Part shown: positions 1-17,843 of the stretch, in pieces
How the letters are laid out: every line of letters starts with the position of its first letter
Position numbering within the stretch: the stretch's first letter is position 1
Origin: an uncultured Bdellovibrionales bacterium
Lineage (GTDB): Bacteria > Bdellovibrionota_G > JALEGL01 > JAGRMV01
Assembly (NCBI GenBank): GCA_964497185.1
Contig: CAZCBX010000006.1
Span: 49,904-113,903 of the forward strand
Direction of reading: 5' to 3'
Length of the DNA: 64,000 bases
Notes under the pieces: model-generated
Told to the model about the DNA's origin: nothing
The model's input: only the letters and a program-made list of their open reading frames with translations
Database searches by the model: none
Program-made: the position numbers and the translations under genes

Positions 1-624
1 CCGCAGGGTATTGAAAAACTTAGAACGCTGTCGTCGAGACGGGGTTAAGGCAGTTAACGCTGGGTTATTGCAAACGCGGCGATCCAAAAAGGCTTGCACG
101 TCGTCTACAGGCTCTGCCACAAACCCAAACAGATCTTCTTCCGGATGTTGTAACTGCTGATCTGGAAAAAGCTGTGCATATCGCGCATCGCTAACTTGAA
201 TGGGCACTGGCGACTGCGTCTCTCGGTTGTATTGGGGGACAAACTGCCCTTCAATGCCGGATTGCGGTTCTGGCTCCTGACCCAAAAATTTCTCGATAAA
301 AGAGGCATCCCCCATTCGCTCTTGTTGATCCTCAACTCTTTCTTGCAACTCAGCCAGCTGGCTGGACTGTGTTTGTTTTTGGTCAATGCAAGACACCAGA
401 CGATCGCCCAAAAATTGCTCTGCGCTGGTTAGATTGCTTTTGATGCCCTCATAGGAATGAAGAAAATCGTCATCTTGATACGTCCGCAGCTCTTTAATCC
501 ATGCGCTCTCTTGTTTTTTGGCTTTGGGGCGCTGTTTTTCATAGATTTCTTTGCCAGTGTAGCCCAGCGTTAAACCAATGCCCAAGCACACAAACGCTAA
601 TATGGTGGTCATCATATGCTTCAT
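1..624 (-). CDS. Hypothetical protein with N-terminal membrane anchor, truncated at the window edge
   Basis: Hand-translated open frame from ATG at 624 (MKHMMTTILAFVCLGIGLTLGYTGKEIYEK...) with no stop before position 1. Absent from the ORF track because it has no stop. Confidence 0.7.
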   Translation of the reverse strand, partial: MKHMMTTILAFVCLGIGLTLGYTGKEIYEKQRPKAKKQESAWIKELRTYQDDDFLHSYEGIKSNLTSAEQFLGDRLVSCIDQKQTQSSQLAELQERVEDQQERMGDASFIEKFLGQEPEPQSGIEGQFVPQYNRETQSPVPIQVSDARYAQLFPDQQLQHPEEDLFGFVAEPVDDVQAFLDRRVCNNPALTALTPSRRQRSKFFNTLR

Positions 625-721
625 GGATCACCATCTTATCAGAATCCCTCTGAAAAAGAATAAAAGTTAAGTGTCGACAAATCAATTCGATTTGATATAT
701 ACGGCACCTTGTTTGATATGT

Positions 722-806
722 GCCGACGTGGCGGAACTGGCAGACGCGCTTGGTTTAGGCCCAAGTGGGGTAACCCGTGGGGGTTCGACTCCCTCCGTCG
801 GTACCA
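722..806 (+). tRNA. tRNA-Leu (anticodon TAG)
   Basis: GCCGACG/CGTCGGT acceptor stem, CTTGG-TT-TAG-GC-CCAAG anticodon arm, long variable arm, GGTTCGACTCC T-arm, encoded CCA. Confidence 0.97.
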
Positions 807-1230
807 AACATCCTTTTTTTTGTTCCTGCTTAATTTTTTGATTCCTTGCTCTATGTGGCTCCTGACGAGAGTCGAACTTTGTTCGAGCTTTTGTTGGGTC
901 GCCTGCGGCTCCATGGCTCCGTCGGTACCAAACATCTTTTTTTTGTTCCTGCTTAGTTTTTTGATTCCTTGCTCTATGAGGCTCCTCGCGGGAGTCGAAC
1001 TTTGTTCGAGCTTTTGTTGGGTTTAGCAAATCTTAGGACGTCAGGCCTTAGATTTGCTTATGTCATGATTTGGTTTGAGCTTGCTCAAAGCATAATCTGA
1101 CCTCCTGCGGCTCCATGGCTCCGTCAATACCAAACATTCTTTTTTTTGTTTTTGCTTATGTCATGATTTGGTTTGAGCTTGCTCAAAGCATAATCTGACC
1201 TCCTTCGACTCCATGGCTCCGTCGGTGCCA
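807..1230 (+). repeat. tRNA-Leu-linked tandem repeat, three units (124, 202 and 98 nt), each ending in a copy of the tRNA 3' end
   Basis: ATGG+CTCCGTCGGTACCA-like copies end at 930, 1132 and 1230, each followed by AACAT and a T-tract. Units 1 and 2 are nearly identical apart from an insertion. Confidence 0.9.
1023..1101 (+). mobile_element. Two-hairpin mini-element, 79 nt (TTAG...GAC); partial second copy at 1154-1199
   Basis: Present in repeat unit 2 (GGGT|TTAG...GAC|CTcctgcgg) and absent from unit 1 (GGGT|CGcctgcgg). Same architecture at 7454, 13661 and 13690. Confidence 0.75.
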
Positions 1231-1386
1231 AACATTTTTTTTATTCCAGGGGCTTACCATTTTGGTTACTGGAATAAGTGAATCGAGGTATTTTTTGGGT
1301 TTGTAGGGCCGCAATCGGTCTTTTTGGGCTTGTAAATGGGCGCTAGGGGTGGACGTTTGGTTGGGTTTAGGGTAGAAGGCTTCGCT

Positions 1387-2649
1387 ATGAAAGTACAAGT
1401 AGATCACGTCAGCGACGTTAAGAAGAAAATTGTTGTCACCATTGATGAAGATCAGGTGCAGAGCCAAATGGATGAGGCTTATGTGGATCTTCAAAAAAAT
1501 GCGCAAATTCCTGGTTTTCGCAAAGGCAAAACGCCCAAATCACTTTTAGAGAAGAAGTATGGCCCTTCAGTTGAAGCTGAAGTTTTTCAAAACTTAATGC
1601 GCGCCACCATGAGCGAAGCTTTGGAAGAAAATGACTTAGACGCTATTTCCATTTCGGATGTAAGCCCGCCTGAAAGAAAAAAAGGCGAAGGTTTAACTTA
1701 CTCTGCATCACTAGAAGTTCGCCCCAACTTTGAACCCAAAGATTACAAAGGCATTTCTGTCAAACAGAACAAAGAAGACGTGAAAGACGAAGCCATTCAA
1801 GAAGTATTGGATCGCATTTTGGACAACCATGCCGTGATGAAACCCTTGGATGCAAAAAGCCCCAAAAAAGGCCAATATGCTTCCATTTTGGTTGAACATC
1901 TGGATGACCAAGGCAATGTGACCGAGACGCCCAAAGCTGAAGAACAGCTTCACATGGTTGGACACGAATCAGCCCGCAAAGATGTCGATCAAGCCATTCA
2001 AAAAATGTCTGTGGGCGATACCCAAGATTTAACCTTGGAGAATGTGCCTGGCCAAAAAGACGATCAAAAAACGTTTGTTCGGTTGACTTTAAAAAGCGTG
2101 AAAGAAAAACAATTGCCTGAACTTAACGATGACTTTGCCAAAACAGTGGGTCCTTTTGAAAATCTTGATGCGCTTAAAAAACAAATCAAAGAAGATCTTT
2201 CCTCTGAATTGGAAGATCGCAAAAAAGTAGATCATGCCACGCAAATTTTGGATCATTTGCGCAAAAAAAATAAAGTGGCCCTGCCCGACACCATGTTGGA
2301 GCAAGAAATGCAAAACATGCGACAAGAATTTTTCAACCGTGTGGTACAAAGCGGCCAAAGCCTGCCGGAAGATTTTTCTGCAGACAAGATGAACGAAGAA
2401 ATGAAACCCGAGGCTGAAAGGCGCGTGCATGAGCAGCTTCTGCTAACGGCCATTGCCAAAAAAGAAAACATTGAAGTCACGCCCCAAGAAATTCACGCAA
2501 AATTGCATGAGCTTTCACACATGTACAACAAGCCTGAAGGAGAGCTTCGTGCGGAGCTTGAAAAATCCGGACGAATGGACTTCTTGCATTATCAGCTTCT
2601 ATCGCAGAAAACGCTTGATTTCCTTGTTGGCGAAGCTAACATGAAGTGA
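1387..2649 (+). CDS. tig: Trigger factor
   Basis: Ribosome-binding signature IPGFRKGK; upstream of clpP-clpX. Start taken at MKVQVD (1387). Confidence 0.95.
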
Positions 2650-2695
2650 ATCTGGGCTTGACCCTATTGTCAGCACCATCATTAGAAAGGGTTTT

Positions 2696-3304
2696 ATGTC
2701 TTCATTGATTCCAATGGTCGTAGAACAAACGCATCGTGGCGAACGTTCATACGACATTTATAGCCGACTTTTAAAAGAACGAATTATTTTTTTGAGCACC
2801 CCTGTCAACGATGAAGTAGCCAATCTCATTGTGGCACAATTGTTGTTTTTAGAATCCGACAATCCTGACAAAGACATTCAATTGTACATCAATTCTCCAG
2901 GTGGCTCGGTCTATTCGGGTATGGCCATATACGATACCATTCAGCATATTAAACCTGAAGTCTCTACTTTTTGCATGGGCATGGCGGCGTCCATGGCGGC
3001 GGTGCTTTTGGCCGCAGGCCAAAAAGGCAAAAGATTTGCTCTGCCCCACTCTCGCGTGATGATTCACCAGCCTTTGGGGGGCTTTCAAGGCCAAGCCACA
3101 GACATTGATATTCAGGCCAAAGAAATTTTAAAAATCAGAGACGAACTCAACCAAGTTCTTCAGCGACATACCGGACAAAGTTTGGATAAAATTCAAGAGG
3201 ATACAGACCGCGACTATTATATGACCTCCGCAGAAGCCAAAGAGTATGGTATTATAGATCACGTAGTTGAAAAACGATCTGACATTGCGAGTGTAACTTC
3301 ATGA
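2696..3304 (+). CDS. clpP: ATP-dependent Clp protease proteolytic subunit
   Basis: [26 protein letters not shown] (catalytic Ser), MIHQP. Confidence 0.99.
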
Positions 3305-4566
3305 CCGAACAAAACAACGACCAAAACCAACTTCATTGTTCATTTTGTGGCAAAGGACAGCGAGAAGTCAAAAAGCTGATTGCTGGCCCCACGGTGTACA
3401 TTTGTGATGAGTGCATTGAACTTTGCAACGACATCATTGAAGAAGAAGGCCAAAACGAAGAAGCTGTAGGAACAGCGCCTTCGGCCATTCCAAAGCCCAA
3501 AGACATCAAAGCCATATTGGACGAATATGTCATTGGCCAAGAAGATGCCAAAAAAGTCCTTTCGGTTGCTGTTTATAATCACTACAAGCGCATTGACAGT
3601 CCTGTGGTTTCCAGCAGCGACATTGAGCTGCAAAAATCCAACATTTTGATGCTGGGCCCCACCGGTAGCGGTAAAACGTTGTTGGCTCAAACCCTTGCCC
3701 GCATTTTAAACGTGCCTTTTACCATCATTGATGCCACCACCTTAACCGAAGCCGGTTATGTGGGGGAAGATGTTGAAAACATCATTGTTACGCTTTTACA
3801 AAATGCAGATTACGATGTTGAACGCGCGCAGCGTGGCATTGCCTACATTGATGAAATCGACAAAATCGCACGCAAAGCCGATAACCCTTCGATTACCCGT
3901 GATGTATCGGGAGAAGGCGTGCAACAAGCACTGCTGAAAGTCATTGAGGGCACGGTTGCCAATGTACCGCCCAAAGGGGGACGCAAACACCCGCAACAAG
4001 AGTTTTTGCAAGTAGACACGAGCAACATGCTGTTTATTTGTGGTGGCGCGTTTGTCGGCTTGGACAAAGTCATTGAAAGACGCATCACGCAAACCAGCAT
4101 TGGTTTTGGTGCTGAGCTAAAATCCAGCAAACCCAAAGGCACGGGCGAACTCTTTCAAGAAGTAAAAAATGAAGATTTAACCAATTATGGTTTGATTCCT
4201 GAATTTATTGGTCGTGTGCCTGTGGTGGCATCGCTCAATGATTTGGACGAAAACGCACTGATTGATATTTTAACTCAGCCCAAAAACGCCTTAATCAAAC
4301 AATATCAAAAACTCTTTGATATGGAGAACGTCAAACTCACATTCACCCCGACGGCCATCTCCGCCATTGCGACCAAAACCATGGACCGCAAAGCCGGCGC
4401 ACGTGGTTTACGCTCTATTTTAGAAGAAATCATGCTGGATATTATGTATGAAATTCCTTCTCAAGAGCACGTGGAAGAGTGCGTCATTTCAGAAGACGTT
4501 GTATTAAAGGGCGATAAGCCTCTGGTTGTGTATCAACAGCCCAAAAAAGAAGCTGAAAGCGCTTAA
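3301..4566 (+). CDS. clpX: Clp protease ATP-binding subunit ClpX
   Basis: CSFCGK...CDEC zinc finger, GPTGSGKT Walker [18 protein letters not shown] loop. Confidence 0.99.
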
Positions 4567-4672
4567 GTCCAAATAAGTCGAAGCAAAGTTTTTTGAGTCT
4601 TGCTTTTTTTTGGTGTGTGCCTACATTGGTAGATATAGGAACTGATATCTGCCAAACAAGGACAAGACCTCA

Positions 4673-7123
4673 ATGACTGAAGACAAAAAACCACTTTCCA
4701 GCAATTTACCAGCCACAGTGACGCGGGTGCCATTACTGCCACTTCGCGATATTATCGTATTTCCACACATGGTGGTGCCATTGTATGTTGGCCGTGAAAA
4801 ATCGGTCAAAGCACTCGAATATGCCATGAAAAATGGCAAAGACCTTTTGCTGTCTGCACAGAAAAAAGCCAAAACCAATGACCCCCAAGAAGAAGATATT
4901 TATACGGTGGGTACATTGGGCAAGATTAAACATCTTTTGCGCTTGCCGGACTCCACCGTAAAAGTTCTGGTGGAAGGGAAAAAGCGAGTTAAAATCAAAC
5001 AATTTATTGAACACCAAGATTTCTTCTTTTGCGAAATCAAAGATTTGGTGGAGCCTGAAACCAAAGACGTAGAGCTTGAGGCAATGGTTCGACAAGTTCA
5101 AAAAAGTTTTGAAGCTTATGTAAAGCTCAATAAAAACATTCCCCCTGAAATGATTATGTCGGTTTCCAACATGGATGAGCCATCGCGTGTGATTGACACC
5201 ATTGCTGCGCACCTCACGTTGAAACTCAAAGACAAACAAGAGGTGCTTGAAATACCGGACGCGCATTCGCGCTTGGAAAAGCTGTATGCTCTGATGCAAT
5301 CTGAAATAGAAATTTTGCAGATTGAAAAACGCATTCGTTCGCGTGTTAAAAAGCAAATGGAGAAAACGCAAAAAGAGTATTATCTCAACGAGCAAATGGC
5401 GGCCATTCAGAAAGAGCTGGGTGAAAAAGAAGACGGTAAATCTGAAATCAATGAGATTGAAGACAATCTTAAAGAGAAAAAACTGCCTGTTGAAGCCAAA
5501 GAGCGCATTGAAAAAGAACTCAAAAAATTAAAAATGATGTCGCCCATGTCGGCGGAAGCCACGGTTGTGCGCAACTACATCGACAACATGATGGAACTGC
5601 CCTGGCTCGAATACAGCGAAGACAAACTCGACATTCCAGAAGCCGAAAAAGTGCTCGAACGTGATCACTATGGATTGGATAAAGCCAAGAAACGAATTTT
5701 GGAATACCTATCGGTTCAAAAACTGGTTAAAGGCATCAAGGGACCCATTCTTTGCTTGGTTGGGCCTCCGGGTGTGGGTAAAACCTCTTTGGCCCGTTCA
5801 ATTGCTGATTCAACGGGGCGTAAATTTGCCAAAATGTCCGTGGGGGGCATGCGGGACGAGGCTGAAATTCGCGGCCACCGACGCACCTACATTGGCGCCA
5901 TGCCTGGTAAAATTATTCAGGCCATTAAAAAAGCGGGCAAGTCCAATCCTGTTTTCTTGATTGATGAAATTGATAAAATGGCGATGGACTTCCGTGGGGA
6001 TCCCTCTGCGGCCATGCTTGAAGTATTGGATCCACAACAAAACCATAGTTTTGGCGATCACTACTTGGATGTAGATTACGACTTGTCCAAAATTATGTTT
6101 GTGGCCACGGCCAATTCCGTCAGCGGCATACCGCGCCCATTGCTGGATCGAATGGAAGTCATTCATCTGTCTGGGTATACCGAAGAGGAAAAACTTCAAA
6201 TTACCAACAAATATCTGATTCCCAATCAGGTCAAAGAAAATGGTTTAACCCCAGACAACATTACGTTCACCGATGCTGGCGTATTGGAAGTCATTCAAAG
6301 ATACACCCGCGAAGCGGGGGTTCGAAATCTTGAAAGAGAAATTTCCTCCATCTGTCGTAAGATTGCCAAAAAAGTAGTCGAGGAAGGAAGTGAGCACCAT
6401 TCAGAAATTACACCTGAACAAGTGCATGATTTGCTCGGCGTACCCAAATTTAAATACGGCATGGCTGAAAAAGAGAGCCAAATAGGCCTAACCAACGGGC
6501 TTGCCTGGACTGAAATGGGTGGAGACTTGTTGCAAATTGAAGTTTCTGTACTACCAGGCAAAGGCAAACTTAAACTTACGGGTAAACTGGGCGATGTGAT
6601 GCAAGAATCGGCACAAGCAGCCATGACCTACATTCGCTCGCGCTCGAAAGCCTTTGGTTTGCGCGATCATTTTTATGAAAAAATTGATTTTCACGTTCAT
6701 GCACCCGAAGGGGCCATTCCAAAAGATGGTCCATCGGCGGGCATCACCATTGCCACTTCGTTGGCCAGTGCCATCATGGGAATTCCCGTGCGCAGAGATG
6801 TTGCCATGACTGGCGAAATCACATTGCGTGGCAAAGTGTTGCCGATTGGCGGACTCAAAGAAAAAGTATTGGCGGCCCATCGTGGCGGCGTGACCGATAT
6901 CATCATTTCGGTGGATAATGAAAAGGACTTAAAAGATATTCCTGAAAACATTCGTGAGGAAATGACCTTTCACACCGTGGAAAACGCCGATGAGGTACTG
7001 AAAATCGCACTGGATTTGCAACCAGGCCAAAGCCTACTGGACAAAGAAGGCGATTTTGCCCTTGAAATCTTTGAAGCCGGTGCGGATGTACCCGGTGTCA
7101 AAGATGAAAAAGCCATGCATTAG
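4673..7123 (+). CDS. lon: Lon protease (endopeptidase La)
   Basis: LPLRD N-domain, GPPGVGKTS Walker A, PKDGPSAG catalytic Ser, IGGLKEK. Confidence 0.99.
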
Positions 7124-7190
7124 CCCTTTTGTAAAAAAAGGTTGACCCTACCCAGAGGGTATGAAATAAGACCCTCTATTGTCAAAGGAT

Positions 7191-7266
7191 GGGCGATTAG
7201 CTCAGCTGGCAGAGCGCCACATTTACACTGTGGATGTCGGCGGTTCGATCCCGTCATCGCCCACCA
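7191..7266 (+). tRNA. tRNA-Val (anticodon TAC)
   Basis: GGGCGAT/ATCGCCC acceptor stem, CCACA-TT-TAC-AC-TGTGG anticodon arm, GGTTCGATCC, CCA; 76 nt. Confidence 0.97.
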
Positions 7267-7580
7267 TCTCCTTATTCCTTGCTTGATTTGAAAGTTTCTT
7301 TGTACCCGCAACTACCAGCAGATCGAACCAAGGTTCTCTGTTGATTGGACTCGCCCTTCGGCGAGTATGGCGTCATCGCCCTCCATCTCTTTATTCCTTG
7401 CTTGATTTGAAAGTTTCTTTGTACCCGCAACTACCAGCGGATCGGCTAGGGTTTTAGTGGTTCTTATGACGTAGGAATTAGAACCACTTATGCCACATTT
7501 GGGCTTGAGCTGGCTCAAAGCAAATGTGGCCTCTGTTGATTTTATCAGCCCTTCGGCGGATATGGCGTCCTCGCTCTTCA
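7267..7580 (+). repeat. tRNA-Val-linked tandem repeat, two units (119 and 195 nt)
   Basis: ATGG+CGTCATCGCCCTCCA ends at 7385 and a degenerate ATGG+CGTCCTCGCTCTTCA ends at 7580. The first roughly 50 nt of both units are nearly identical. Confidence 0.9.
7454..7530 (+). mobile_element. Two-hairpin mini-element, 77 nt (TTAG...GGC)
   Basis: Filled site GGTT|TTAG...GGC|CTCTGTTGATT in unit 2 versus empty site GGTT|CTCTGTTGATT in unit 1 (7332-7346). Confidence 0.8.
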
Positions 7581-7704
7581 TTTTGAGGGGGTTTTACCTA
7601 ATTTTTTAGAATCCATTGAGTGCGTATGGTAAAATAGTAGAGATATTCAGTATTTATCCTAAATATTTGAAAATCGTTGGTTGTATTTACTCATGGGTTG
7701 TTGC

Positions 7705-10458
7705 ATGTTGTATCGAGGTTGTATTTTTGTTGTGTGGCTTTGCTGTTGCTTTTTATGGCAGTGCAATGCAGGCACCCCTACGTCTAAACTTGTTTTTAAG
7801 CCTTCTCCACAAAACCCAGCCAGCACTTTTACTCTCATTCAACCTTCATCTACCCATGCCAAAGATGAACGCATCCTTCTTCGCATTGAAAATTTGTCTC
7901 CCGAGAACAAAGCCACTTTGCATGATGATCCTGCTTGTCAAAACGCACTGCCTCATTTAGCCGATGCGTCGTCTCGTGCCCATGCTGTCGATTTTTCCAT
8001 CGACTTAGAGCAAGACGGTGTTTACACCTACTATGCGCAAGTTGGTTCACCTGAAAGTAATCATCCGCTTTGTTTGGGACCGGTAAGCTATCGTTTGGAC
8101 CGCATTGCGCCCGTCATCACCGATGTCTCGGATGGGTCTGGGTCTTACATTGCGTTATCTACCAGCGAGTCCGATAATCCAGTGTATGTGTATGATGATG
8201 ACGCCTGCACAAATGAAGTGGGCGAGCTATTACCCGATGGCAATGGCAACGACATTGTGTTTGCACCAGGCCTGACGGAAAATGGCGTGTTTTTATATTG
8301 GGTGCAAACGCAGGACAATGCCGGCAACTTATCCGATTGTGTGGGTCCGCTTTTTTATATGTATTTGGGTGCTTCGCCCAACTCCATGATTTCGATGCCC
8401 AATCAATTGGCCATCAACACGGGCACCCTCGAATACAATGTTGATTTTGGTGATGTATTTTCGGCTTCAATGGCTGCCAGCGATGTCACCGTGCAAACCA
8501 CCGGTGACGTGCAATACAGTGTGCAAGTGTTAAACGGCACAACCAAAACACCCACCATTGTGTTAACGGTCACTGGCGGCAATGGCACCATCAACAGCGT
8601 GAGCATTCCAGAGGGCTTGGGTGACAACCTTGTGGCAGGCACACCGGCCGCCACTCAAAATACCGTGGTTCGTGTGGACAACATTGCACCCAACGTCACT
8701 TTGTCTTTGTCACCATCCACACCTTCCCCGGGTGATTTTAATCCCATTTTGTTTGATATAACGGCAACCACGCCCACTGATTTGGCCTCGGTCGCCCTGT
8801 TTAAAAATGACCCCACTTGTTCGAGTCCTGCAGCCAATACTGGTGGCCACCCTGCACAAACGTCACTGAGTCTTGCATCCGACACCATTGAAACCGGTAC
8901 AGGCACTTATCTATACTATCTGCAAGCCATCGATGCGGCAGGCAATGCATCCGGATGCGTCGGCCCGGTCAGCTATCAGCTCAGTGCGCCAGATCCGGTG
9001 AGCAATCTCAACATTTCTGCCAAAGGTTGTGATTACTTATCCATTGGTTGGACCAAGCCCAACGAAAACGGCACCACCATTGTCAATTATCAAACCCGTT
9101 ACAAACCTTCGGCGCTCCTGGATGAAAGCAATTTTGTTTTATTTGACCCAGGCATCTCTACACAAACCTTTGAAACCATTGGACCCGCTGCGCCCCACAC
9201 GCTAACCGTTGATACCGTCTACGATTTTCAAATGCGAACCGTCACCAGCAACGGGGCCATATCGCCTTGGTCCAATACCTATACAGGCGCAACCTTGCCC
9301 AACACCCTATTTTTCTGTGGGAATGACAATTACGGCGCATTTAACACAGGGGGTGCCACCACCAGCAAAATGGTTGCATTTGATGACGGAACCACCGTAG
9401 AGCATTACAATCAAAGCAATTTATTGATTAATACCTACACGCTTGACGCGGGTGAAACACAAGGCATCAACAGCACGCAGTTCGATTATGTTTTATCGGA
9501 CAAACCATTGTACATTGCGGGTCGAAGAGGCAGTGGGGGCAATACACGCAAAGCAAACGTGGTTTGGAGTTCCAAAGACTGGGCGGGCAAACAGTTTTTA
9601 TTCAATGGATCGCGCGCGCCCAATCACATTTTAAGCGTTTACGCATTTGAAGATGCCACCATTGATGTCATCAATGCCAGTGGGGTTGTGGTTACGCAGA
9701 CCATCAATGCTGGCCAAAGCACCACGTTTAGTGTGGGCAATGGCAGTTATGAGGTCGACAGTACAGGCACGTTGGTTGCCTATCTGTTTTCGAGCAGTGG
9801 CAATCCCATGGGCAACAACCTGCAAGACCCAATGCCTTTACTGCCACTGTCCACCGATATCATTGGTTACACCGGCAGCATCAGCGGTGCCCAAATTTCT
9901 TCTTTAAGCAATGGCAATGTCGTCAACGCAAGGCATTCCAACGATGTGCTTGATACCCGAACTGTCAACATCGGCAACCCCCAATCCATTTCAGCCCGAG
10001 GTAACGGCAACGTGACACTTTACCAATCAGAGGCTGTGCATGTGACCTCTTCAGCCCCCATCGTTGCCCGTAGTAATGCGGACAGCAATGGCAACTGTTC
10101 GGCGCCTTTTCTTCCAGTTACCATGATGCGCAAGCGATACGCCATCAATGTCTATGCTGAGTGGGTGGCCTTTGCCGCATTGGAAAGTGGCGATATTGAA
10201 GTGGTGGATCCACAAACAGGTTCCGTGGTGGCCACCATCACCCTGGTCCAAAATGATCCAACTCCACCTACAGCCTCCACCACCCCTTGGAAAGCACGAA
10301 TCGATCGCTCCACGCTGTTAAACTTGGTCAGTAGCAACTCAACGACTGAAGGGGTTATCTTTCGATCGACCATTGCCTTTGCGGCTTGGTATGAACCTCA
10401 AAATGACAACTTCGCAGCTGACGACGATGAAACATTGCTTTATGGTACCAATGATTAA
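7705..10458 (+). CDS. Large secreted/surface protein with repeated Ig-like modules, a fibronectin type III domain and a beta-rich C-terminal region
   Basis: Hydrophobic Cys-ending N-terminus; three modules ending G.Y.Y..Q..D.AGN...C.GP..Y; FN3-like PDPVSNL...IGWTKP..NGTTIVNYQTRY. Start chosen at ATG 7705 (the ORF track starts at TTG 7681). Confidence 0.75.
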   Translation: MLYRGCIFVVWLCCCFLWQCNAGTPTSKLVFKPSPQNPASTFTLIQPSSTHAKDERILLRIENLSPENKATLHDDPACQNALPHLADASSRAHAVDFSIDLEQDGVYTYYAQVGSPESNHPLCLGPVSYRLDRIAPVITDVSDGSGSYIALSTSESDNPVYVYDDDACTNEVGELLPDGNGNDIVFAPGLTENGVFLYWVQTQDNAGNLSDCVGPLFYMYLGASPNSMISMPNQLAINTGTLEYNVDFGDVFSASMAASDVTVQTTGDVQYSVQVLNGTTKTPTIVLTVTGGNGTINSVSIPEGLGDNLVAGTPAATQNTVVRVDNIAPNVTLSLSPSTPSPGDFNPILFDITATTPTDLASVALFKNDPTCSSPAANTGGHPAQTSLSLASDTIETGTGTYLYYLQAIDAAGNASGCVGPVSYQLSAPDPVSNLNISAKGCDYLSIGWTKPNENGTTIVNYQTRYKPSALLDESNFVLFDPGISTQTFETIGPAAPHTLTVDTVYDFQMRTVTSNGAISPWSNTYTGATLPNTLFFCGNDNYGAFNTGGATTSKMVAFDDGTTVEHYNQSNLLINTYTLDAGETQGINSTQFDYVLSDKPLYIAGRRGSGGNTRKANVVWSSKDWAGKQFLFNGSRAPNHILSVYAFEDATIDVINASGVVVTQTINAGQSTTFSVGNGSYEVDSTGTLVAYLFSSSGNPMGNNLQDPMPLLPLSTDIIGYTGSISGAQISSLSNGNVVNARHSNDVLDTRTVNIGNPQSISARGNGNVTLYQSEAVHVTSSAPIVARSNADSNGNCSAPFLPVTMMRKRYAINVYAEWVAFAALESGDIEVVDPQTGSVVATITLVQNDPTPPTASTTPWKARIDRSTLLNLVSSNSTTEGVIFRSTIAFAAWYEPQNDNFAADDDETLLYGTND

Positions 10459-11327
10459 TGATTTTGTTTAAACTGCTGAATGCTTTCTGCCACTTGCGCG
10501 CCAAATAAAACAACAATGGAATTGTAGTACATCCACAATAATAAAATGACTAGATTTCCTGCCGTTCCATACAGCGATGCCCATTTGCTCTGCGTTAGAT
10601 AGCTTAACAAAACATTCTTACCCACGGAAAAAAGAAACGAAGAAACCAATGCGCCTATGATCAGATTTCTTTTTTTCATCTCACGCGCACCCAATAACTT
10701 ATAAAGTACAAAGAAAAGTCCAGCATTGATGCCGTAAGACAGCAGGAAGCTAATCATTTGATTCATCCATTCTGCTGCCAGCAGTGCTTCGGCTTGTTCT
10801 TCAATCATAAAGTGAAAAATCAAATCAATTAAAATGGCCACCAATACGATAAACCCAATCACAAACACCATAATAAAAGACACCAGCACATCCCATATCT
10901 TTTGCCTCTTTTGAAGATTGTCTTCCATAAAGGTAAAAATATCGCGAAAAGCCGTTTGCAAGGCTGAAAAAATGGCGTTGGAAGCCCATAAAAGCAACAA
11001 AATACCTGTAATGCTCGCCACCAGTCCTGATTCTGAGCGGCGCGCACTGGATGCGGATTCTTTCAGTACTTTCACCAGGTCTTCATTGAGGTATTGCCCA
11101 ATAAAATTAAACAGGGAATCACTGGCCAGGTGCATATCCACCACCAAGCTGGCAATGAAAATAGAAATGAGCAATACGGGCGGCACCGAAAAAATCGTAT
11201 AAAATGAAACAGCTGCTGCATGATGAACAATACGGTTATCAAAAATACCTTTGCCCATGTCCATCAACAAATTTTTGGTTGCTTTGAGCATGCTACACCA
11301 GCTTATATCAGTCTTTACGATATGCAA
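10455..11327 (-). CDS. YihY/virulence factor BrkB family membrane protein
   Basis: AAAVSFYTIFS.PP and SLYGTAGNLVILLLWMYYNS.VVLFGA motifs; multiple TM segments. True start may be 11291. Confidence 0.9.
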   Translation of the reverse strand: MHIVKTDISWCSMLKATKNLLMDMGKGIFDNRIVHHAAAVSFYTIFSVPPVLLISIFIASLVVDMHLASDSLFNFIGQYLNEDLVKVLKESASSARRSESGLVASITGILLLLWASNAIFSALQTAFRDIFTFMEDNLQKRQKIWDVLVSFIMVFVIGFIVLVAILIDLIFHFMIEEQAEALLAAEWMNQMISFLLSYGINAGLFFVLYKLLGAREMKKRNLIIGALVSSFLFSVGKNVLLSYLTQSKWASLYGTAGNLVILLLWMYYNSIVVLFGAQVAESIQQFKQNH

Positions 11328-11335
11328 AATCGTAC

Positions 11336-12733
11336 TTAGGATAGTTCTTGTACACTAGTTTCAAAGCGGGCTTGAATGTAGGGCTTAACAATTGGACTGG
11401 TTTTGATTTTCGCCCCCAGGGTATAGAGCAAATTGTACAAACCAATTTCAGCTCGCATAATGTAAGTCAACTCGGGCCAAAGGATTTTTGCCTTTGCAGA
11501 CGCTTGAAAAAGCCGCTTAAATTCGTTTAAAATCATACCATCTGAAAAATCGACCACTTGATCTACTTGGGTATCCCAACGAGGATAAATTTGGGCGTAC
11601 AATCTTGAAAAACCTCGATGAACTTCTAGCTGAGCTTCTGTGAGCTCATTAACTGAAAATTTCCGATGAACCTTTTCCACCATGGCTTTGTACTGACGCT
11701 GATCCTGATCCAAATCCAGCGTTAAAGATGAAACAAAAGCGTCAATCATGTCGCTGGGCACGGCTTTGACGCATCCAAAATCAACCAAGCCAATTGATCC
11801 ATCTGGATCAAAAAGATAATTGCCCAAATGTGGATCGGCGTGCAAATAGCCAATGCGATGGATTTGATGGTGATACATGTTCATTAATTGACGGGCCAAT
11901 CGATTGCGAAAAGCTTGAGATTTTTCTTTTTCCAATATTTTTTCTAAACTCATACCGGGCACAACACTCATGGTCAGCACCTTAGCGTTTGAAAATTCTG
12001 GATGGACTTTGGGCAATGCAACGCCTTCAAAATTTTCAAAACCCTTGGCAAAAATGGAAATATTCTTTGCTTCGTGCAGGTAATCTGTCTCCTCTAGTAA
12101 CCCGCGCTTAAGTTCATCGAATGCAGCTTGATGGTAATGTTTGGTCCACATCATCGGTTTGAAGGTGGTGCGAATCACTTGCAAATCATGCTCGATGGTT
12201 TTGGCAATGTTGGGGTATTGCAACTTCACCACCACTGGGGTGCCATCCTTAAGTTTTGCATGGTGTACCTGCCCCATGGAAGCTGAGGCAAACGCTTGAG
12301 CATCAAATTCGCCAAACACTTTCTCTGGCATGACACCAAATACTTTTTTAAACTGCAACCTGGCCATGGTCGGATTCATGCTGGGGGCATGCATTTGTAA
12401 CGTGCTTAGCTCCGTCAAAGCTTGCTCAGGCAGCCATTGGCCCTGCATACTCATCATCTGGCCCAGTTTCATCCAAGGCCCTTTTAAGCCTTTAAGAGCC
12501 TGTGTGGCTTTAACAGCCTGGTCACTCACCTTTTGGTCTGCCAGTTTCGCTGCTTGGTCTTGCTCTAAAAACGCCTTTTGAATTTGATACCCAATGTAAC
12601 TATTGGAAATACCCAATCCCACTTTGGCCATGGTCCACGCGCGTTTGATTTGCCCTTGTGTAAAATCAAAGTCTTCTTCCTCCGTACTTGCGGCATCAGA
12701 ATCATGCTGATCATCCGCGCTTACCATGTCCAT
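11336..12733 (-). CDS. ABC1/AarF/UbiB family atypical kinase
   Basis: [38 protein letters not shown]. Likely start MDMVS overlaps the TetR stop. Confidence 0.93.
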
Positions 12734-13368
12734 GGGCTTTTGTTTAAAAAAGCAAACCCCATGGTTAGCGAACGATCCAACATGGCCATGGTTTTTTGCT
12801 TGTCTTCGGAAGTATCTTTGAGCCAGTAATACAAAATACCATAATAGTAGGTTGCAAACATGTAAGCACCCCAATCACCCAGGGGAGGAATTTCTCCATT
12901 TTCATGGGCTTTCACGAACAATTCTTTGATAAATTGAAGGTACCGACTGGTGTGAACTTGGGTGTCTAATTTAAGCGGATTGAGTTTGGATCGAGGATCC
13001 AACGCTTTGATAAATGCCGCATGAATAAAATCTTCGTAGGGTGACAGCTGTTCAAGTTGCATATGAATCAGACCAAAAAGTTTTTCGTTGAGTGGGGCTT
13101 TTTGCAACGTTTTATCTTTTTGATACTGCGACATAACTTGCTCAATTTCTTTTTCATAGAAATACAGCGCCAAGTCTTCTTTGGTGGCAAAATAATTGTA
13201 AATGGTGCCTTCAGCCACGCCAGCTTGAGCGGCCAGTTCTTTTGTGGTGGTTTGCGCAAAGCCCTTTTTTTGAAACAACGTCAGCGCAGCTTGCAAAATT
13301 TTGTCTTTCACAACTTGCTTTTTGGTTTCTCGAACCCGAGAAGCGGACTTTTTCTTTGTTTTTGGCAT
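12721..13368 (-). CDS. TetR/AcrR family transcriptional regulator
   Basis: [43 protein letters not shown] helix-turn-helix. Confidence 0.93.
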
Positions 13369-13445
13369 GAGTATACTCATTATTATCAGATCCCCTTGCG
13401 GGTGTAAATCTGCGACTTTCTTGAAAAAAGGCGTAAAAAACCTGT

Positions 13446-13473
13446 TTGACTCCCCTTCGGAATGTGGTAGAAC
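13446..13473 (+). promoter_or_regulatory. Putative sigma70-type promoter of tRNA-Asp
   Basis: TTGACT-16 nt-TAGAAC with an upstream TG, ending 16 nt before the tRNA. Confidence 0.45.
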
Positions 13474-13489
13474 CAACTTTCAAAATTTA

Positions 13490-13566
13490 GGGGTCGTAGT
13501 TCAGTTGGTTAGAACGCCTGCCTGTCACGCAGGAGGTCGCGGGTTCGAGTCCCGTCGGCCCCGCCA
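13490..13566 (+). tRNA. tRNA-Asp (anticodon GTC)
   Basis: GGGGTCG/CGGCCCC acceptor stem, CCTGC-CT-GTC-AC-GCAGG anticodon arm, GGTTCGAGTCC, GCCA. Confidence 0.98.
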
Positions 13567-13660
13567 CTGTCTTCTTTTGGAGATGGTTGCTTCTCTTTAT
13601 CTTTATTCTATATTATTGCACGTGCTGGGGACTCGAACAGAGTTCGTCTATTTACTGGGT

Positions 13661-13806
13661 TTAGTGGTTCTTGTGACGTTAGGAACTAGGCCAGTTTCGC
13701 GCACACTCCTTGAGCACGAAACTTGGCATAAGCCGCGTTACTAAAGCAACGGCTAAAACCACTTATGTCATAATTTTTTTTCAGCTATGCTGAAGGGAAA
13801 TTTGAC
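13661..13806 (+). mobile_element. Two-hairpin mini-element (79 nt once the nested copy is removed)
   Basis: GGGT|TTAGTGGTTCT..GACGTTAGG..AG[nested]AACCACTTATGTCA...TGAC|CT; hairpin 1 is nearly the same as in the Val copy. Confidence 0.75.
13690..13756 (-). mobile_element. Nested inverted mini-element copy, 67 nt
   Basis: Reverse complement reads GGTT|TTAGCCG...CGGCTTATGCCAAGTTTCG...CGAAACTGGC|CT. Removing it restores the host stem arm AGAACCAC. Confidence 0.75.
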
Positions 13807-13922
13807 CTCCTTACGGCTCCATGGCGTCGGCTTTTTCTTTTTTTACTTTAGGTTTAGCATGTGAAATTTTGTTTTTTTCCAAGCAGGTGGGGACATGTGC
13901 CTTTCGTACAGGGCCCGCGGTT

Positions 13923-14915
13923 TTAGGATTGGATGGATTGGAGGAGTTTTAGGAGGGCTTTTTCTTCTTTGTTGGTGAAGTTGTCCTGATCGATTTCTTT
14001 GAGGACTTCTTCAATGTAGTTTTGAAGCGTGACACCCGCCTCGTATTGTTGAACCACACGGGGGTCGATGTAGTTGGCTTTGGCCACGGCTTCGGTGTTG
14101 CCCAAGTGCTGTGCAACTTGATTGATGGCTTCTTTGATTTTTGTTTTTTGTTCTTTTTGGCTTTCCACCACGCCCATTTCATTTAATAACGTTGCTGCCA
14201 AAAAAGTACCGGCCCAGGTTCGAAAGTCTTTAGCGGAGTACTCCTCACCCATGACTTCATGAATGTACCGATTAAGATCGTCAGACTTTACATCTACTTT
14301 TTGTCCTTCTGAATCAAAGTATTTGAAAATTTCATAGCCGGGCACTTCATCAATTTCTCTGACGATTTCTGCCAGTCTTCGGTCTTTGATCTTTTTGGTG
14401 TGGGTCTTTCCTGATTTGCCCTTATAGCTAAAAGTAAGTTTATGGCCCTGCACATCCAAATGCTTAGACCTTAGTGTGGTTAGCCCGTAGGTTTGATTCT
14501 GGCTGGTATAGTAATCGCTGCCTGGTCGAAAGTAAGCATTTTCCATCAAGCGCACCATGCACGCCATAACTTTATCACGATTGAGATTGGGTTGCGCCAA
14601 ATGCTGGCCGGTCACTTGTCGCATATGAGAAAGGCGAGAAGCAAAGTCGATGATTCGCGCAAACTTTTTCTTTTCCTGTTTTTCGCGCCATTTGGGGTTG
14701 TATATGTACTGCTTGCGCCCTTTGACATCCCGTCCCCAAGCAAAAACTTTTGCCCGCGGCTGCTGTGCAAAAATATGAACATCCGTCCACGCTGGCGGAA
14801 TGGCCAAACTTTGAATCCACGACTTGAGTTTTTTGGACACAATGGTTTTACGGGTTTGCGCATCCAGGTACCGAAAGCCCTGTCCCCACTTTTTTCGCTC
14901 GATGGTTTGGCCCAT
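13923..14915 (-). CDS. DNA topoisomerase IB (bacterial, poxvirus-like)
   Basis: IPPAWTDV, GRDVKGRKQYIY, FRPGS, YGLTTL, FSYKGKSG, SAKDFRTW, LGNTEAVAKANYIDP (catalytic Tyr). Confidence 0.95.
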   Translation of the reverse strand: MGQTIERKKWGQGFRYLDAQTRKTIVSKKLKSWIQSLAIPPAWTDVHIFAQQPRAKVFAWGRDVKGRKQYIYNPKWREKQEKKKFARIIDFASRLSHMRQVTGQHLAQPNLNRDKVMACMVRLMENAYFRPGSDYYTSQNQTYGLTTLRSKHLDVQGHKLTFSYKGKSGKTHTKKIKDRRLAEIVREIDEVPGYEIFKYFDSEGQKVDVKSDDLNRYIHEVMGEEYSAKDFRTWAGTFLAATLLNEMGVVESQKEQKTKIKEAINQVAQHLGNTEAVAKANYIDPRVVQQYEAGVTLQNYIEEVLKEIDQDNFTNKEEKALLKLLQSIQS

Positions 14916-15002
14916 AGTTTTTTATCATGCGTGAATGTTTTACGTGTCACATATAGCGTTGGTTAGGTGGTCTTTTTTTCTTTAGTTTTTGGCTCGACAT
15001 CC

Positions 15003-15081
15003 GTCAGTTGCAGTCACCTGTAGGCAATGGCTCGCCCCTTCGGGGCTGTGCTTTATTTGCCTACAGGTGACTGCAACCGAC
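15003..15081. repeat. Long intergenic palindrome (25-bp arms, one mismatch) with conserved loop
   Basis: GTCAGTTGCAGTCACCTGTAGGCAA / TTGCCTACAGGTGACTGCAACCGAC around loop TGGCTCGCCCCTTCGGGGCTGTGCTTTAT; loop is related to that of 27982-28054. Confidence 0.9.
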
Positions 15082-15128
15082 TCGGTTTGAGGGTAAAAAT
15101 TATTACAAAAAATTAAATTGGTTTATAT

Positions 15129-15171
15129 GTCATTGAATTAGTTGCAGAAGATCTGCAACTAATTCAATGAC
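15129..15171. repeat. Perfect 20-bp inverted repeat with 3-nt loop
   Basis: GTCATTGAATTAGTTGCAGA-AGA-TCTGCAACTAATTCAATGAC. Confidence 0.9.
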
Positions 15172-15353
15172 TACGTTTCTATTTTTTTCTTTTTTTCAAA
15201 TACTTAAACGTTTAAAAATCAAGTTTCTTGACCAGCTTCATTGCACTTGATTTTTTTGTTTTACAAGTTTAATTACATTAATTGTTCAAATTAAAAATCA
15301 TCAAAACGTAAATAATTATTGATAAAAACAACCATTATCAAAAGAGCTTATCC

Positions 15354-17843
15354 ATGAAAAAAAATCCCAACATCATTTCAAATTTTCTTAAGATATTTTC
15401 ATCATCTGCGAACAACCTATTACTTTTTTCTTTATTGATAGGTTTGGTTGGTTGTTCAAACAGCAGTACCAATACAGATGAATTATTTTCATCAAGTCGA
15501 GTAATTACTTTTGAGGAAATCTACCCAGAAAACCGTGGTGAGATTCAAAGCCAAAATTTTTCTTTAGATAAGTGGTCATGGAATCAAGATATCGCTGAAG
15601 GTGCGACTCTTCAGGAAGGCATTCACTATACGCTAGACTCAAACATGATTCCAGCAGGCTTGAGTTTTCAAATCAAAATTAATACCAATAGAACAGCAAC
15701 ATTCAGCCTACTTGGAAGAGCCATTGACCATCATGTGAGCGACTCAGTAAATGATATTAACTTTACCTTTCTTAAAGATGCTTTCTTAGCAGGTTCGCCA
15801 AAGGCTTTAGCAGAGGAAAAACTACCGACATCGATCAATATTCTTTTTGGCATTGGTTATCAATTATCAGGCACGGTTGTTGACTTGGTTGACAAGGTTG
15901 AGCTTACTGAAGTTCGTCAAGGTCAATCCGTGGTGTTAACATCTGAAAGTACAAATTTTGTTTTTTCGAACCGGTATGAAGATGGAGATCCATTTGAACT
16001 TGAAGTTTTCAATTTCACAGGCAATAAAGTTTGTGGATTAAATCAATCTGATGGGACTTTTGCATCACAAAATTATGATTCTCTGATTTTAACCTGTTCT
16101 TCTCCGATTCAGCCAACAGTGTTGAATCTTGATGCTATCGTACCTTATAGAACAATGCAGTATAGTTGGGTTGATGCTCAACACGCTATGTTTTATTACC
16201 TTGAGGAATCACTTGATGGTGGAATAACCTACGAACCAGTGTCGGAAAATATAGCTACAAACGTTCAGGCTGGAGAATATATGCTTGAAAACTCATTGTA
16301 TGAAAGTTTCGGAGCACAATACCGTTTACAATCATGCAATTCTCAAGAATGCGTCGCTTCGAACACCATTGTCATACCACAAATTATGCTCAATAATTAC
16401 ATAGATTATTTAAAAGCAAGCAATACAGGTGGTAATGATAATTTTGGACATGCTTTATCAATTAGTGACGATGGGAACACTTTGGCAGTTGGGGCATACT
16501 ATGAAGACAGCAATTCTACAGGCATCAACGGAAACCAAGATGATAATAGTTCATCAAATTCGGGAGCCGTATATATTTTTACACGGACAAATACTGGATG
16601 GAGCCAAGAAGCATATTTAAAAGCCAGCAATTCAGATTTTAATGACCAGTTTGGCAATGCGATATCATTGAGTGGAGATGGTTCTACGTTAGCAGTAGGT
16701 GCCCATTACGAAGATAGCGGATCCACAGGTATAAATGGAAATCAAAATAATGACAATGCATCACAATCGGGTGCTGTTTATATATTTATAAAAAATGATT
16801 TTGGATGGTCACAGGAGGCATATATTAAAGCTAGTAATCCTGGTGTAGATGATCGGTTTGGGTCCTCAGTTTCACTCAATGGTGCCGGCAATAAATTGGC
16901 CGTAGGTGCAATCCATGAAGGCAGTGGCGCGACTGGTGTAAATGGAAATCAATATGATGAGAGTGAAGGTTGGTCCGGTGCGGCTTATGTATTTTCTAAA
17001 AATCAAGGTGTATGGGCTCAGGATGCTTATTTCAAGGCAAGTAATACCTCATCAGAAAATCATTTTGGACAATCTGTTTCAATGAGTGCGGATGGAAATA
17101 CTTTGGCGGTAGGAGCTCCCCTTGAATATAGTGAAGCTACTGGCATAAACGGTGATGGAAATCAAAGTGTTGATAGCTCCAGCGTAAACTCAGGTGCTGC
17201 TTATATCTTTTCCAATAGTGCATCTGGTTGGAGCCAGGATGCCTATATCAAAGCAAGTAATGCTGAGGAAAACGATCGATTTGGATATTCCCTTTCTTTG
17301 AGCGGTGACGGCTATACTCTTGCAGTAGGGGCCTCTGATGAAGACAGCAGCGCAACTGATATAAACGGAAATCAAAATAGCAATAGTGAATCAAACTCAG
17401 GTGCCGTATACATTTTTACGAAAAATAATTCCTCTTGGAGTCAAGAAGCTTATATTAAAGCAAGCAACACTGACGAAGGCGACAAATTCGGTAGTTCTGT
17501 ATCGTTAAATTATGATGGAGATTTTTTAGCAGTGGGAGCAAAGTTAGAAAGTAGTAGTTCCATAGGGTTAAACGGCAATCAAAACAACCATTTCAGTACA
17601 TCAGAATCTGGAGCAGTATACATATATGAACGCTCTTCACATATTTGGAATCAACATACATACGTAAAATCAAGCAATACAGATTCTGAAGATGAGTTTG
17701 GTTCTGCAGTATCGATAAGTGGGGATGGGGCCACATTGGCTGTGGGTGCAAATAAAGAAAACAGCAGTGCGATGGGCATCAATGGCAATCAAAATGATAA
17801 CAGCTCCAGCTCTGGCGATTCAGGTGCAGTATACGTTTATTGA
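15354..17843 (+). CDS. Lipoprotein with seven FG-GAP/integrin-alpha-like repeats (probable beta-propeller)
   Basis: Lipobox LVGC; seven repeats of Y.KASN....D.FG..S.S.DG.TLAVGA..E.S...GINGNQ.....SGAVY.F; visibly AT-rich coding sequence. Confidence 0.9.
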   Translation: MKKNPNIISNFLKIFSSSANNLLLFSLLIGLVGCSNSSTNTDELFSSSRVITFEEIYPENRGEIQSQNFSLDKWSWNQDIAEGATLQEGIHYTLDSNMIPAGLSFQIKINTNRTATFSLLGRAIDHHVSDSVNDINFTFLKDAFLAGSPKALAEEKLPTSINILFGIGYQLSGTVVDLVDKVELTEVRQGQSVVLTSESTNFVFSNRYEDGDPFELEVFNFTGNKVCGLNQSDGTFASQNYDSLILTCSSPIQPTVLNLDAIVPYRTMQYSWVDAQHAMFYYLEESLDGGITYEPVSENIATNVQAGEYMLENSLYESFGAQYRLQSCNSQECVASNTIVIPQIMLNNYIDYLKASNTGGNDNFGHALSISDDGNTLAVGAYYEDSNSTGINGNQDDNSSSNSGAVYIFTRTNTGWSQEAYLKASNSDFNDQFGNAISLSGDGSTLAVGAHYEDSGSTGINGNQNNDNASQSGAVYIFIKNDFGWSQEAYIKASNPGVDDRFGSSVSLNGAGNKLAVGAIHEGSGATGVNGNQYDESEGWSGAAYVFSKNQGVWAQDAYFKASNTSSENHFGQSVSMSADGNTLAVGAPLEYSEATGINGDGNQSVDSSSVNSGAAYIFSNSASGWSQDAYIKASNAEENDRFGYSLSLSGDGYTLAVGASDEDSSATDINGNQNSNSESNSGAVYIFTKNNSSWSQEAYIKASNTDEGDKFGSSVSLNYDGDFLAVGAKLESSSSIGLNGNQNNHFSTSESGAVYIYERSSHIWNQHTYVKSSNTDSEDEFGSAVSISGDGATLAVGANKENSSAMGINGNQNDNSSSSGDSGAVYVY

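Follow-up and report, generated by a model that had tools for sequence, protein, structure and literature searches.

Behind the tRNA-Asp(GTC) gene of an uncultured Bdellovibrionales bacterium, one copy of a small, non-coding two-hairpin element most probably sits inside another. The stretch analysed, referred to as the window, comprises 64,000 nucleotides (nt) of contig CAZCBX010000006.1 (positions 49,904 to 113,903) of GenBank assembly GCA_964497185.1. The source genome, called G000, amounts to 2.14 Mb in 30 contigs (C1 onwards), and the window is C6:49904-113903. In our interpretation, window positions 13690-13756 represent a separate insertion of a family member, in opposite orientation, into hairpin 1 of a resident 79-nt member. 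From sequence comparisons, the family appears to land at the tRNA T-loop sequence GGTT^CRAATCC (position 55/56; the caret marks the insertion point), a target broader than the GGTT^CT motif proposed in a preliminary description of the window; this is our main new result. The analyses support the nested copy as good anatomical evidence that modules of this two-hairpin type insert by themselves at sites resembling the T-loop, whichever their orientation.

Structure of the composite block

The trailer of tRNA-Asp(GTC) harbours a 146-nt composite (13661-13806) with an inner piece of 67 nt (13690-13756). The features of this region are, by window position and strand:

13490..13566, plus strand: tRNA-Asp(GTC), called by ARAGORN (Rfam tRNA model, 72.9 bits)
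13627..13649, plus strand: trailer 'hairpin A', read from the sequence as the cognate T-loop in inverted copy (GGGACTCGAAC), aga and GTTCGTCT, in this order
13661..13689, plus strand: left part of the host element, from TTAG through the 5' arm and the loop of hairpin 1 up to the initial AG of its 3' arm
13690..13756, minus strand: nested 67-nt element of the short-hairpin-1 'B' type, by cmsearch (48.8 bits) and single-stranded DNA folding
13757..13806, plus strand: right part of the host element, with the remaining 3' arm of hairpin 1 (AACCACTTA), TG and hairpin 2
13807..13831, plus strand: end of the trailer unit, made up of CTCCTTACGGCTCCATGG and then CGTCGGC, which repeats tRNA-Asp 13554-13560; this layout recurs in other trailers

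Read on the minus strand, the nested piece starts with TTAGCCGTTGC and ends with GAAACTGGC, between a left flank ..AAGTGGTT and a right flank CTAGTTCC..; its hairpin 1 spans 13728-13756 and its hairpin 2 spans 13690-13727. The coordinates, lengths, ends and flanks given for it in the preliminary description are correct to the base. In tRNA-Asp itself the T-loop sequence is GGTT^CGAGTCCC, its T55/C56 junction falling at 13545/13546. Comparison of the trailers showed that hairpin A, elsewhere the usual landing site of inverted copies, is unoccupied in the Asp trailer, and the inverted copy thus landed ~45 nt off the usual place. A scan of the Asp trailer for terminators and promoters yielded nothing that accounts for the element.

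The nested piece is a member of the family

Copies of the element were gathered genome-wide using a regular expression and nhmmer, and 22 of them were aligned, the nested piece and its host being left out. The family architecture is TTAG, hairpin 1, CTTATG, hairpin 2, over 67-85 nt of non-coding DNA. In the consensus fold, composed of two hairpins with 18 pairs, 11 of the 18 are kept through changes on both sides, and the invariant letters are the 5' TTAG, the CTTATG linker and a few bases of hairpin 2. A covariance model derived from this alignment matches the nested piece over its full length on the minus strand (13756-13690, model positions 1-81 of 81, 48.8 bits, E 2.1e-7 in the 64-kb window), in agreement with its earlier description as a complete, inverted family member. 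Seven hits were obtained in the window at E up to 10, including two weak partial ones (E 0.17 and E 2). Other copies and hits in the window are:

7454..7530, plus strand: Val-trailer copy, 77 nt, inserted at GGTT^CTCTG (65.2 bits)
1023..1101, plus strand: Leu-trailer copy, 79 nt, inserted at GGGT^C (63.4 bits)
13729..13806, plus strand: hit on the right part of the host (38.9 bits)
1145..1199, plus strand: shortened copy in Leu unit 3, hairpin 2 only (26.3 bits)

With a sequence-only profile of the 22 copies, the nested piece scored 20.7 bits and 1000 dinucleotide shuffles at most 2.3, none of them reaching its score. The preliminary description had suggested a stricter control, a profile of the three other window copies only, and here again the piece beat all 1000 dinucleotide shuffles (5.0 bits vs a maximum of 4.0). 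Folded as single-stranded DNA, it reaches -17.0 kcal/mol (z -3.86), with 0/200 shuffles folding as well; the z values of the family copies range from -3.9 to -7.1. Its junctions are canonical, GTGGTT/TTAGCC...CTGGC/CTAG (slashes mark the element boundaries), fitting ..GTT/TTAG and G-R-C/C. The preliminary description had recommended a search for free copies of the 67-nt variant: other short-hairpin-1 variants are present at C1:202638-202704 and C12:28928-28995, but they are only ~75% identical to the nested piece (50/67). Its best matches in G000 reach 50/67 or 57/82 identity, and no closely related source copy was found among them.

Evidence for an insertion

Joining 13661-13689 to 13757-13806 yields a host of 79 nt, the same length as the Leu copy (1023-1101). 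The rejoined host folds into both family hairpins and is identical at 72/79 positions to the copy at C12:29021-29099 and at 70/79 to that at C9:18411-18489. Removal of the insert does restore the host exactly, as had been claimed.

Paralogous trailer units provide pairs of empty and filled sites. The first unit of the Val trailer reads AAGGTT^CTCTGTTGATT, an empty site at 7335/7336 where the second unit has 77 extra bases. Similarly, the Leu trailer has an empty unit 1 (TTGGGT^CGCC) and a unit 2 that is longer by 79 bases at the same point. No target base is duplicated at these Val or Leu sites.

Contigs assembled separately from four sequencing runs of one source sample carry the composite with 0 differences; the contigs that cross the left junction are X1 record 7, X3 record 23 and X4 record 30, and those that cross the right one are X1 record 7 and X2 record 15. 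G000 is a short-read metagenome-assembled genome (MAG) with a read depth of 3-8x, and the four runs share that single sample and are thus not independent samples. As contigs of the four runs span the junctions of the composite, a chimera of the MAG or an assembly join is unlikely. The DNA of this organism was found in the runs of one sample only, and the relatives available for comparison belong to other genera. The tRNA-Asp trailers of five of them (G001, G002, G009, G011 and G012) are devoid of the whole unit, which shows only that the unit arose in this lineage.

Family size, location and orientation

The covariance model found 28 hits in G000 and, among the 16 other phylum genomes, 1-4 hits in each of five, and the element is thus present in 6/17 phylum genomes. 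Our table of G000 copies has 30 rows, two of them with imprecise ends. Most of these copies (26/30) follow a tRNA or transfer-messenger RNA (tmRNA) gene at a distance of up to 900 nt on its 3' side, 16 in the same orientation as that gene and 10 inverted. The junctions over the 30 copies are GTT^C in 17 cases, GGT^C in five and TCT^C in three, T^C overall accounting for 27. The earlier claim of site-specific mobility in either orientation is therefore sustained as regards the two orientations and the precise, duplication-free paralogous sites; the part that calls for an insert-free allele is taken up below.

Several trailers show additional rearrangements. The Leu trailer (807-1232), behind tRNA-Leu(TAG), is composed of three tandem units that each end in a copy of the tRNA 3' end, and its unit 3 harbours a microhomology deletion that fused the GCTTA of the trailer to the GCTTA of the element, with everything in between gone. 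In the Pro-GGG trailer (C4:55195-55355), a complete 79-nt copy (C4:55277-55355) abuts a second copy that is missing its first bases and starts with GAGCC rather than TTAGCC, both being inside one T-loop copy. This pair may represent a second insertion of an element into an element, here in direct orientation and at the very 5' terminus.

Between tRNA-Leu and tRNA-Val (window 1336-7123), the open reading frames (ORFs) are ordered like those of trigger factor, ClpP, ClpX and Lon, candidates by size and order only. This seemingly conserved core neighbourhood suggests that the trailers are not part of an island.

Landing sites resemble the tRNA T-loop

We compared the flanks of 25 copies with the cognate tRNAs. 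For seven copies in the same orientation as the tRNA, the right flank is identical to the cognate tRNA at 20-21 of 21 positions, from C56 to CCA, and the left flank is GGTT plus T-stem bases, with an exact run of 3-7 nt. Given these matches, the element appears to split the T-loop of a partial tRNA copy located 60-75 nt past the gene. For eight inverted copies, the right flank corresponds to the 3' half of the cognate T-loop and the T-stem, seven being exact for 8-11 nt and one having a mismatch. Their left flank is CGAAC-nnn-GTT, and they split an inverted T-loop copy of the 'hairpin A' type. In the five other phylum genomes with the element, five of the nine copies have the layout GGTT/element/CRAATCC...CCA.

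All 33 tRNA genes and the tmRNA gene of G000 were called intact. Half of these loci (17/34) have their own 3' strand repeated once or twice downstream, giving 26 such repeats overall. Two designs of trailer unit are found in G000. One is a direct partial tRNA copy beginning at the T-arm; the other is composed of the inverted cognate T-loop, a variable hairpin, ATGG and the 3' strand of the acceptor stem.

In the host's hairpin 1, the bottom-strand sequence is GTGGTT^CTAGTTCC; it resembles a T-loop, is placed in a stem-loop and can be compared with GGTT^CTAATCC of tRNA-Arg(TCT). By mimicking a T-loop in such a context, one element can offer a landing pad to another, and the earlier suggestion that stem 1 of the element can supply the target is borne out by this match. 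The GGTT^CT target holds at the nested site, where it represents one variant of a T-loop-like motif that we refine to GGTT^C(R/T)A(N)T(T)CC.

Three copies outside T-loop sequences (C3:196635-196719, C4:1623-1705 and C13:4386-4468) each form the 3' part of a ~230-nt repeat. This repeat, with its start near AACCGGATCTTTTT, includes a long imperfect hairpin; one of the three copies is upstream of, and antisense to, tRNA-Arg(CCT).

Relatives of hairpin 1 outside the phylum

A pattern of hairpin 1 with fixed TTAG, loop GAGCRAAGCGA and CTTATG and with free stems was searched in 185,579 species genomes. It identified nine loci, two of them in the phylum genome G006 and the others in Dongiaceae, a gammaproteobacterium, Brevinematales, Paceibacteria/Parcubacteria and an unclassified MAG. 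Metagenomes contributed 27 further loci, for 36 in all, and in most of these 27 CA precedes TTAG, by inspection. The loci comprise 26 distinct hairpin 1 sequences, and by eye the arms are complementary in every one, though the stems were left free. At nine of the 36 loci, only 0-1 nt separate hairpin 1 from a tRNA end, the hairpin being placed either after the 3' end or antisense before the 5' end. The exact type-A hairpin 1 pattern was found at one locus only among the same species genomes, in G002, and the hairpin 1 pattern had 0 hits in IMG/VR. In the five genomes of other phyla that hold hairpin 1, the whole-element model gave weak hits only (30-36 bits), indicating that hairpin 1 alone is shared there.

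Many hairpin 1 loops contain GCGAAGC or GCGNNAGC. These motifs have been described as an extraordinarily stable DNA mini-hairpin (PMC13037366). The stability of the loop motif as DNA favours a role at the DNA level.

The contexts of some loci are distinctive. Head-to-tail arrays of hairpin 1 with a 53-nt period, made up of a 41-nt hairpin and a near-constant 12-nt spacer, occur in a Brevinematales MAG and metagenome contigs (L062, L082 and L100); elsewhere the copies are single. On two small contigs (L081 and L096), a rolling-circle replication gene (Pfam REP_ORF2-G2P) is found a few hundred bases downstream of hairpin 1, which hints at a role in single-stranded DNA replicons. A third locus, L095, shares flanking sequence with these two, and no replication-protein gene was found on its contig.

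Candidate enzymes

Four RAYT-like Y1_Tnp genes were found in G000 (C7:112873-113196, C2:164950-165276, C18:15956-16288 and C14:4264-4509), of 212-243 codons from stop to stop. A palindrome of the GGGGACAGACACC type that flanks one of them recurs in the tRNA-Leu(GAG) trailer. G000 also has one small GIY-YIG gene coding for 105 residues (C12:19781-20095), for which no NCBIfam name was matched. The search for TnpB gave no PF07282 match in G000. Tyrosine integrases were dropped as partners, as the only two PF00589 genes (on C10 and C12) are both away from the trailers.

Small GIY-YIG proteins are found near hairpin 1 in other organisms. In the metagenome loci L102 and L092, hairpin 1 (TTAG...GAGCGAAGCGA...CTTATG) follows tRNA-Ser and brackets a GIY-YIG gene (119 residues), and this gene ends in a tRNA copy from the T-loop onward. 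This protein and the G000 GIY-YIG protein are identical at 29/79 positions (37%, E 5e-19). Among 53 relatives of the L092 gene, nine are encoded directly behind a tRNA or tmRNA gene (L116, L117, L120, L121, L141, L150, L152, L161 and L167), in nine MAGs of different phyla, with GC-rich spacers harbouring GAGCGAAGCGA-like motifs. At L116 and L120 a tRNA copy from the T-loop onward follows the GIY-YIG gene, and at L117 a hairpin 1 variant comes right after the tRNA. The loop motif GAGCRAAGCGA is present in 6/53 of these loci vs 0.13 expected; strict hairpin 1 was found at 0/53. Conversely, one of the 81 ORFs beside the 36 hairpin 1 loci codes for a GIY-YIG protein.

Comparison with known systems

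One close resemblance is to PATEs, miniature derivatives of IS200/IS605, and to the REP/REPIN repeats, which are reportedly moved by Y1 (HUH) transposases or RAYTs, as He et al. in 2015, Nunvar in 2010 and Ton-Hoang in 2012 are said to have described. Like them, the family consists of non-coding hairpin units found at a short fixed motif, in both orientations and without target duplication, the hairpin shape is kept while the stem letters vary, and Y1 genes are present in G000. It differs in that no G000 Y1 gene is flanked by hairpins of the element, as an autonomous partner would be, that the hairpins reach the very ends of the element and that the target is a T-loop sequence in decoy tRNA pieces. 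We know of no report of such a target for the PATE/REP family.

Ssn proteins are small GIY-YIG proteins, defined by CDD class cd10448, that cut hairpin repeats (NTS/SRM) as single-stranded DNA, and the authors remark on an IS-like repeat-gene-repeat layout (Nat Commun 2025, PMC11893778). The likeness lies in oriented hairpin repeats with a short conserved tag, sometimes around a single-domain GIY-YIG gene of ~100 residues as at L102 and L092, in the tag-like TGTCAT with which many copies of the element's hairpin 2 begin, and in a single-stranded substrate, presumed in our case. None of 29 copies fits the degenerate SRM pattern published there (PMC11893778), which has six matches genome-wide; the supplementary tables of that paper could list a related motif. 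The family also differs in that the G000 GIY-YIG gene has no flanking repeats and in that Ssn proteins are shown to cut DNA, not to move it.

The double-hairpin elements that Paquin, Laforest and Lang reportedly described in 2000 from fungal mitochondria (Allomyces, chytrids) also have two adjacent hairpins of similar size, are non-coding and occur at many sites in either orientation, their mobility being deduced from presence and absence. They differ by being organellar and GC-rich and by having no known T-loop specificity; we compared them by description, not by sequence. Tyrosine-integrase elements are said, after Williams in 2002, to integrate in the T-loop of tRNA or tmRNA genes and to leave attL/attR repeats; as in our trailers, the complete tRNA then precedes a partial duplicate that runs from its T-arm to its 3' end. 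However, the spacer is here only 60-75 nt, the two tyrosine recombinase genes of G000 are elsewhere, and the element lies inside the would-be crossover. We rejected the interpretation of the trailers as att sites, as there is no integrase and no island between the tRNA and the partial copy.

Tandem trailer units that each end in a copy of the tRNA 3' end are also known from the rtT repeats of Escherichia coli tyrT (RF00391), in which, to our knowledge, no T-loop-splitting hairpin inserts have been reported. They are the nearest published trailer repeat known to us (10.1101/2024.07.17.603846). In an Rfam search of window 1-16000 at E up to 1, only tRNA reached the threshold; RF00391 was not detected, and two sub-threshold hits (E 0.23 and 0.43) are at chance level. 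A hammerhead-like CTGACGAG in the Leu trailer was dropped for want of Rfam support. Similarly, a classical DDE-type miniature inverted-repeat transposable element (MITE) was discarded, since the ends TTAG... and ...GRC are not mutual inverted repeats and no target duplication is present at the Val and Leu sites. From its sequence features, the family seems to be of the hairpin-repeat/MITE kind, with an unusual target.

Weighing the explanations

A number of observations weigh against insertion by a T-loop-directed mobile element. Seven 'type A' copies sit at GGGT^CTCC, before GGCTCCATGG and the tRNA 3' strand, and the three copies in the ~230-nt repeat sit at ATCT^CTCGG. All ten are poor T-loop matches, which implies either that sites are recognised less strictly than the T-loop model would have it or that targets fall into several classes. 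No allele without 13690-13756 was found in the relatives or in the contigs of the source sample, contigs being prone to drop rare variants. The search for such alleles, recommended in the preliminary description, was thus fruitless, and mobility is deduced from anatomy rather than seen as a polymorphism. The copies give no date for the insertion event and do not show a recent jump. No enzyme is tied to the element. Each Y1 gene of G000 is bracketed by its own unrelated palindrome, with no hit of the element model nearby, and Y1 genes are present in 17/17 phylum genomes vs 6/17 for the element; Y1 transposases can therefore not be linked to it. The small GIY-YIG gene of G000 has no flanking hairpins and adjoins no tRNA, and such genes occur in 14/17 phylum genomes, a distribution that the element does not follow.

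Among the alternatives, the modules might be remnants of small GIY-YIG nuclease cassettes at tRNA 3' ends, spread by nuclease-triggered repair (homing or gene conversion), the nested copy resulting from two successive repair events. The bracketed gene behind tRNA-Ser at L102/L092 with its terminal tRNA copy, the nine relatives directly behind tRNA or tmRNA genes, with tRNA 3' copies at L116 and L120 and the hairpin 1 variant at L117, the excess of the loop motif and the homologue in G000 all point that way. We nevertheless regard this scenario as unlikely, given that strict hairpin 1 is missing from the 53 loci, that GIY-YIG genes are so rare beside hairpin 1, and that the G000 gene lacks both hairpins and tRNA and has a distribution untracked by the element. 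Moreover, homing targets the same locus in another genome, which leaves unexplained a bare 67-nt module at a non-homologous site whose removal gives back the host exactly. Transposition could also be dispensed with altogether if the composite had arisen by replication template switching or illegitimate recombination between nearby hairpin repeats. Trailers are indeed rich in palindromes and tandem units, the GCTTA deletion of Leu unit 3 attests to microhomology events, and the Ser-TGA and Glu trailers harbour an inverted B-type copy ~25 nt upstream of a direct A-type copy, which a small rearrangement could unite. However, the boundaries of the nested piece are both full ends of a family member (model 1-81), the host is recovered to the exact base, the junction (GGTT/TTAG and GGC/C) has the form of 17 other copies, and hairpin A is intact and empty, so that no B copy was merely shifted from there. 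Such an origin is therefore most improbable.

Slightly less credible still is a functional RNA made together with the tRNA, such as a processing or termination signal, of which the 146-nt form would be a kept structural variant. The strong covariation and the hairpins abutting tRNA ends within 0-1 nt (9/36 loci) would suit it, and E. coli rtT shows that tRNA trailers can give stable RNAs (10.1101/2024.07.17.603846). Yet 10 of the 26 tRNA-linked copies are antisense to the tRNA, some loci in other phyla are antisense upstream of the tRNA 5' end, presence and absence vary among paralogous units and related genomes, no Rfam family matches, and it is as DNA that the loop motif is stable. Finally, two repeat copies could in principle have been misjoined in a short-read MAG with a ~30-copy repeat family at the low depth of 3-8x, but we consider an artefact hardly conceivable, since the separate contig sets of four runs are identical over both junctions and both junctions are canonical element ends. 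Insertion of one family member into another is thus the explanation that we favour.

Proposed mechanism and significance

Precise, duplication-free insertion by a fixed motif in a hairpin context is the single-strand 'peel and paste' behaviour of IS200/IS605 elements. Under the insertion model, the element would enter precisely between the T and the C of a T-loop-like site (55/56), without target duplication. The real tRNA genes would never be hit, or hits would not be tolerated, and the copies would reside instead in decoy T-arms, the direct or inverted partial tRNA copies that follow roughly half of the tRNA and tmRNA genes at 60-75 nt. Movement would probably proceed through folded single-stranded DNA, cut and rejoined by a trans-acting nuclease or transposase that recognises hairpins, possibly of the Y1/HUH or small GIY-YIG type.

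A broader hypothesis, which we put forward tentatively and consider possible if rather doubtful, is that the family represents a new class of selfish DNA that homes, as folded single-stranded DNA, to the universal tRNA T-loop and survives by means of decoy T-arms ~70 nt behind tRNA genes. Hairpin 1 would imitate the T-arm, so that residents make fresh landing pads, and the nested copy would be the first direct trace of this process. With the hairpin 1 core at tRNA ends in several phyla, sometimes together with a mini GIY-YIG gene, it might form a widespread tRNA-targeting system. In the literature, we found no description of a hairpin element targeting the T-loop, of partial tRNA copies with non-autonomous elements or of GIY-YIG cassettes behind tRNA genes.

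Small hairpin repeats tend to be regarded as genomic filler, and their movement is understood for few families. The nested copy, together with the clean empty and filled sites nearby, provides base-precise ends and a target for one such family. No sequence in biology other than the ribosome is more conserved than the tRNA T-loop, and an element that recognises this loop and is confined to decoys could explain why partial self-copies trail many tRNA genes in many phyla. A nuclease or transposase able to read DNA hairpins shaped like a T-arm is a further implication of the family, and such an enzyme would be a useful tool for single-stranded DNA.

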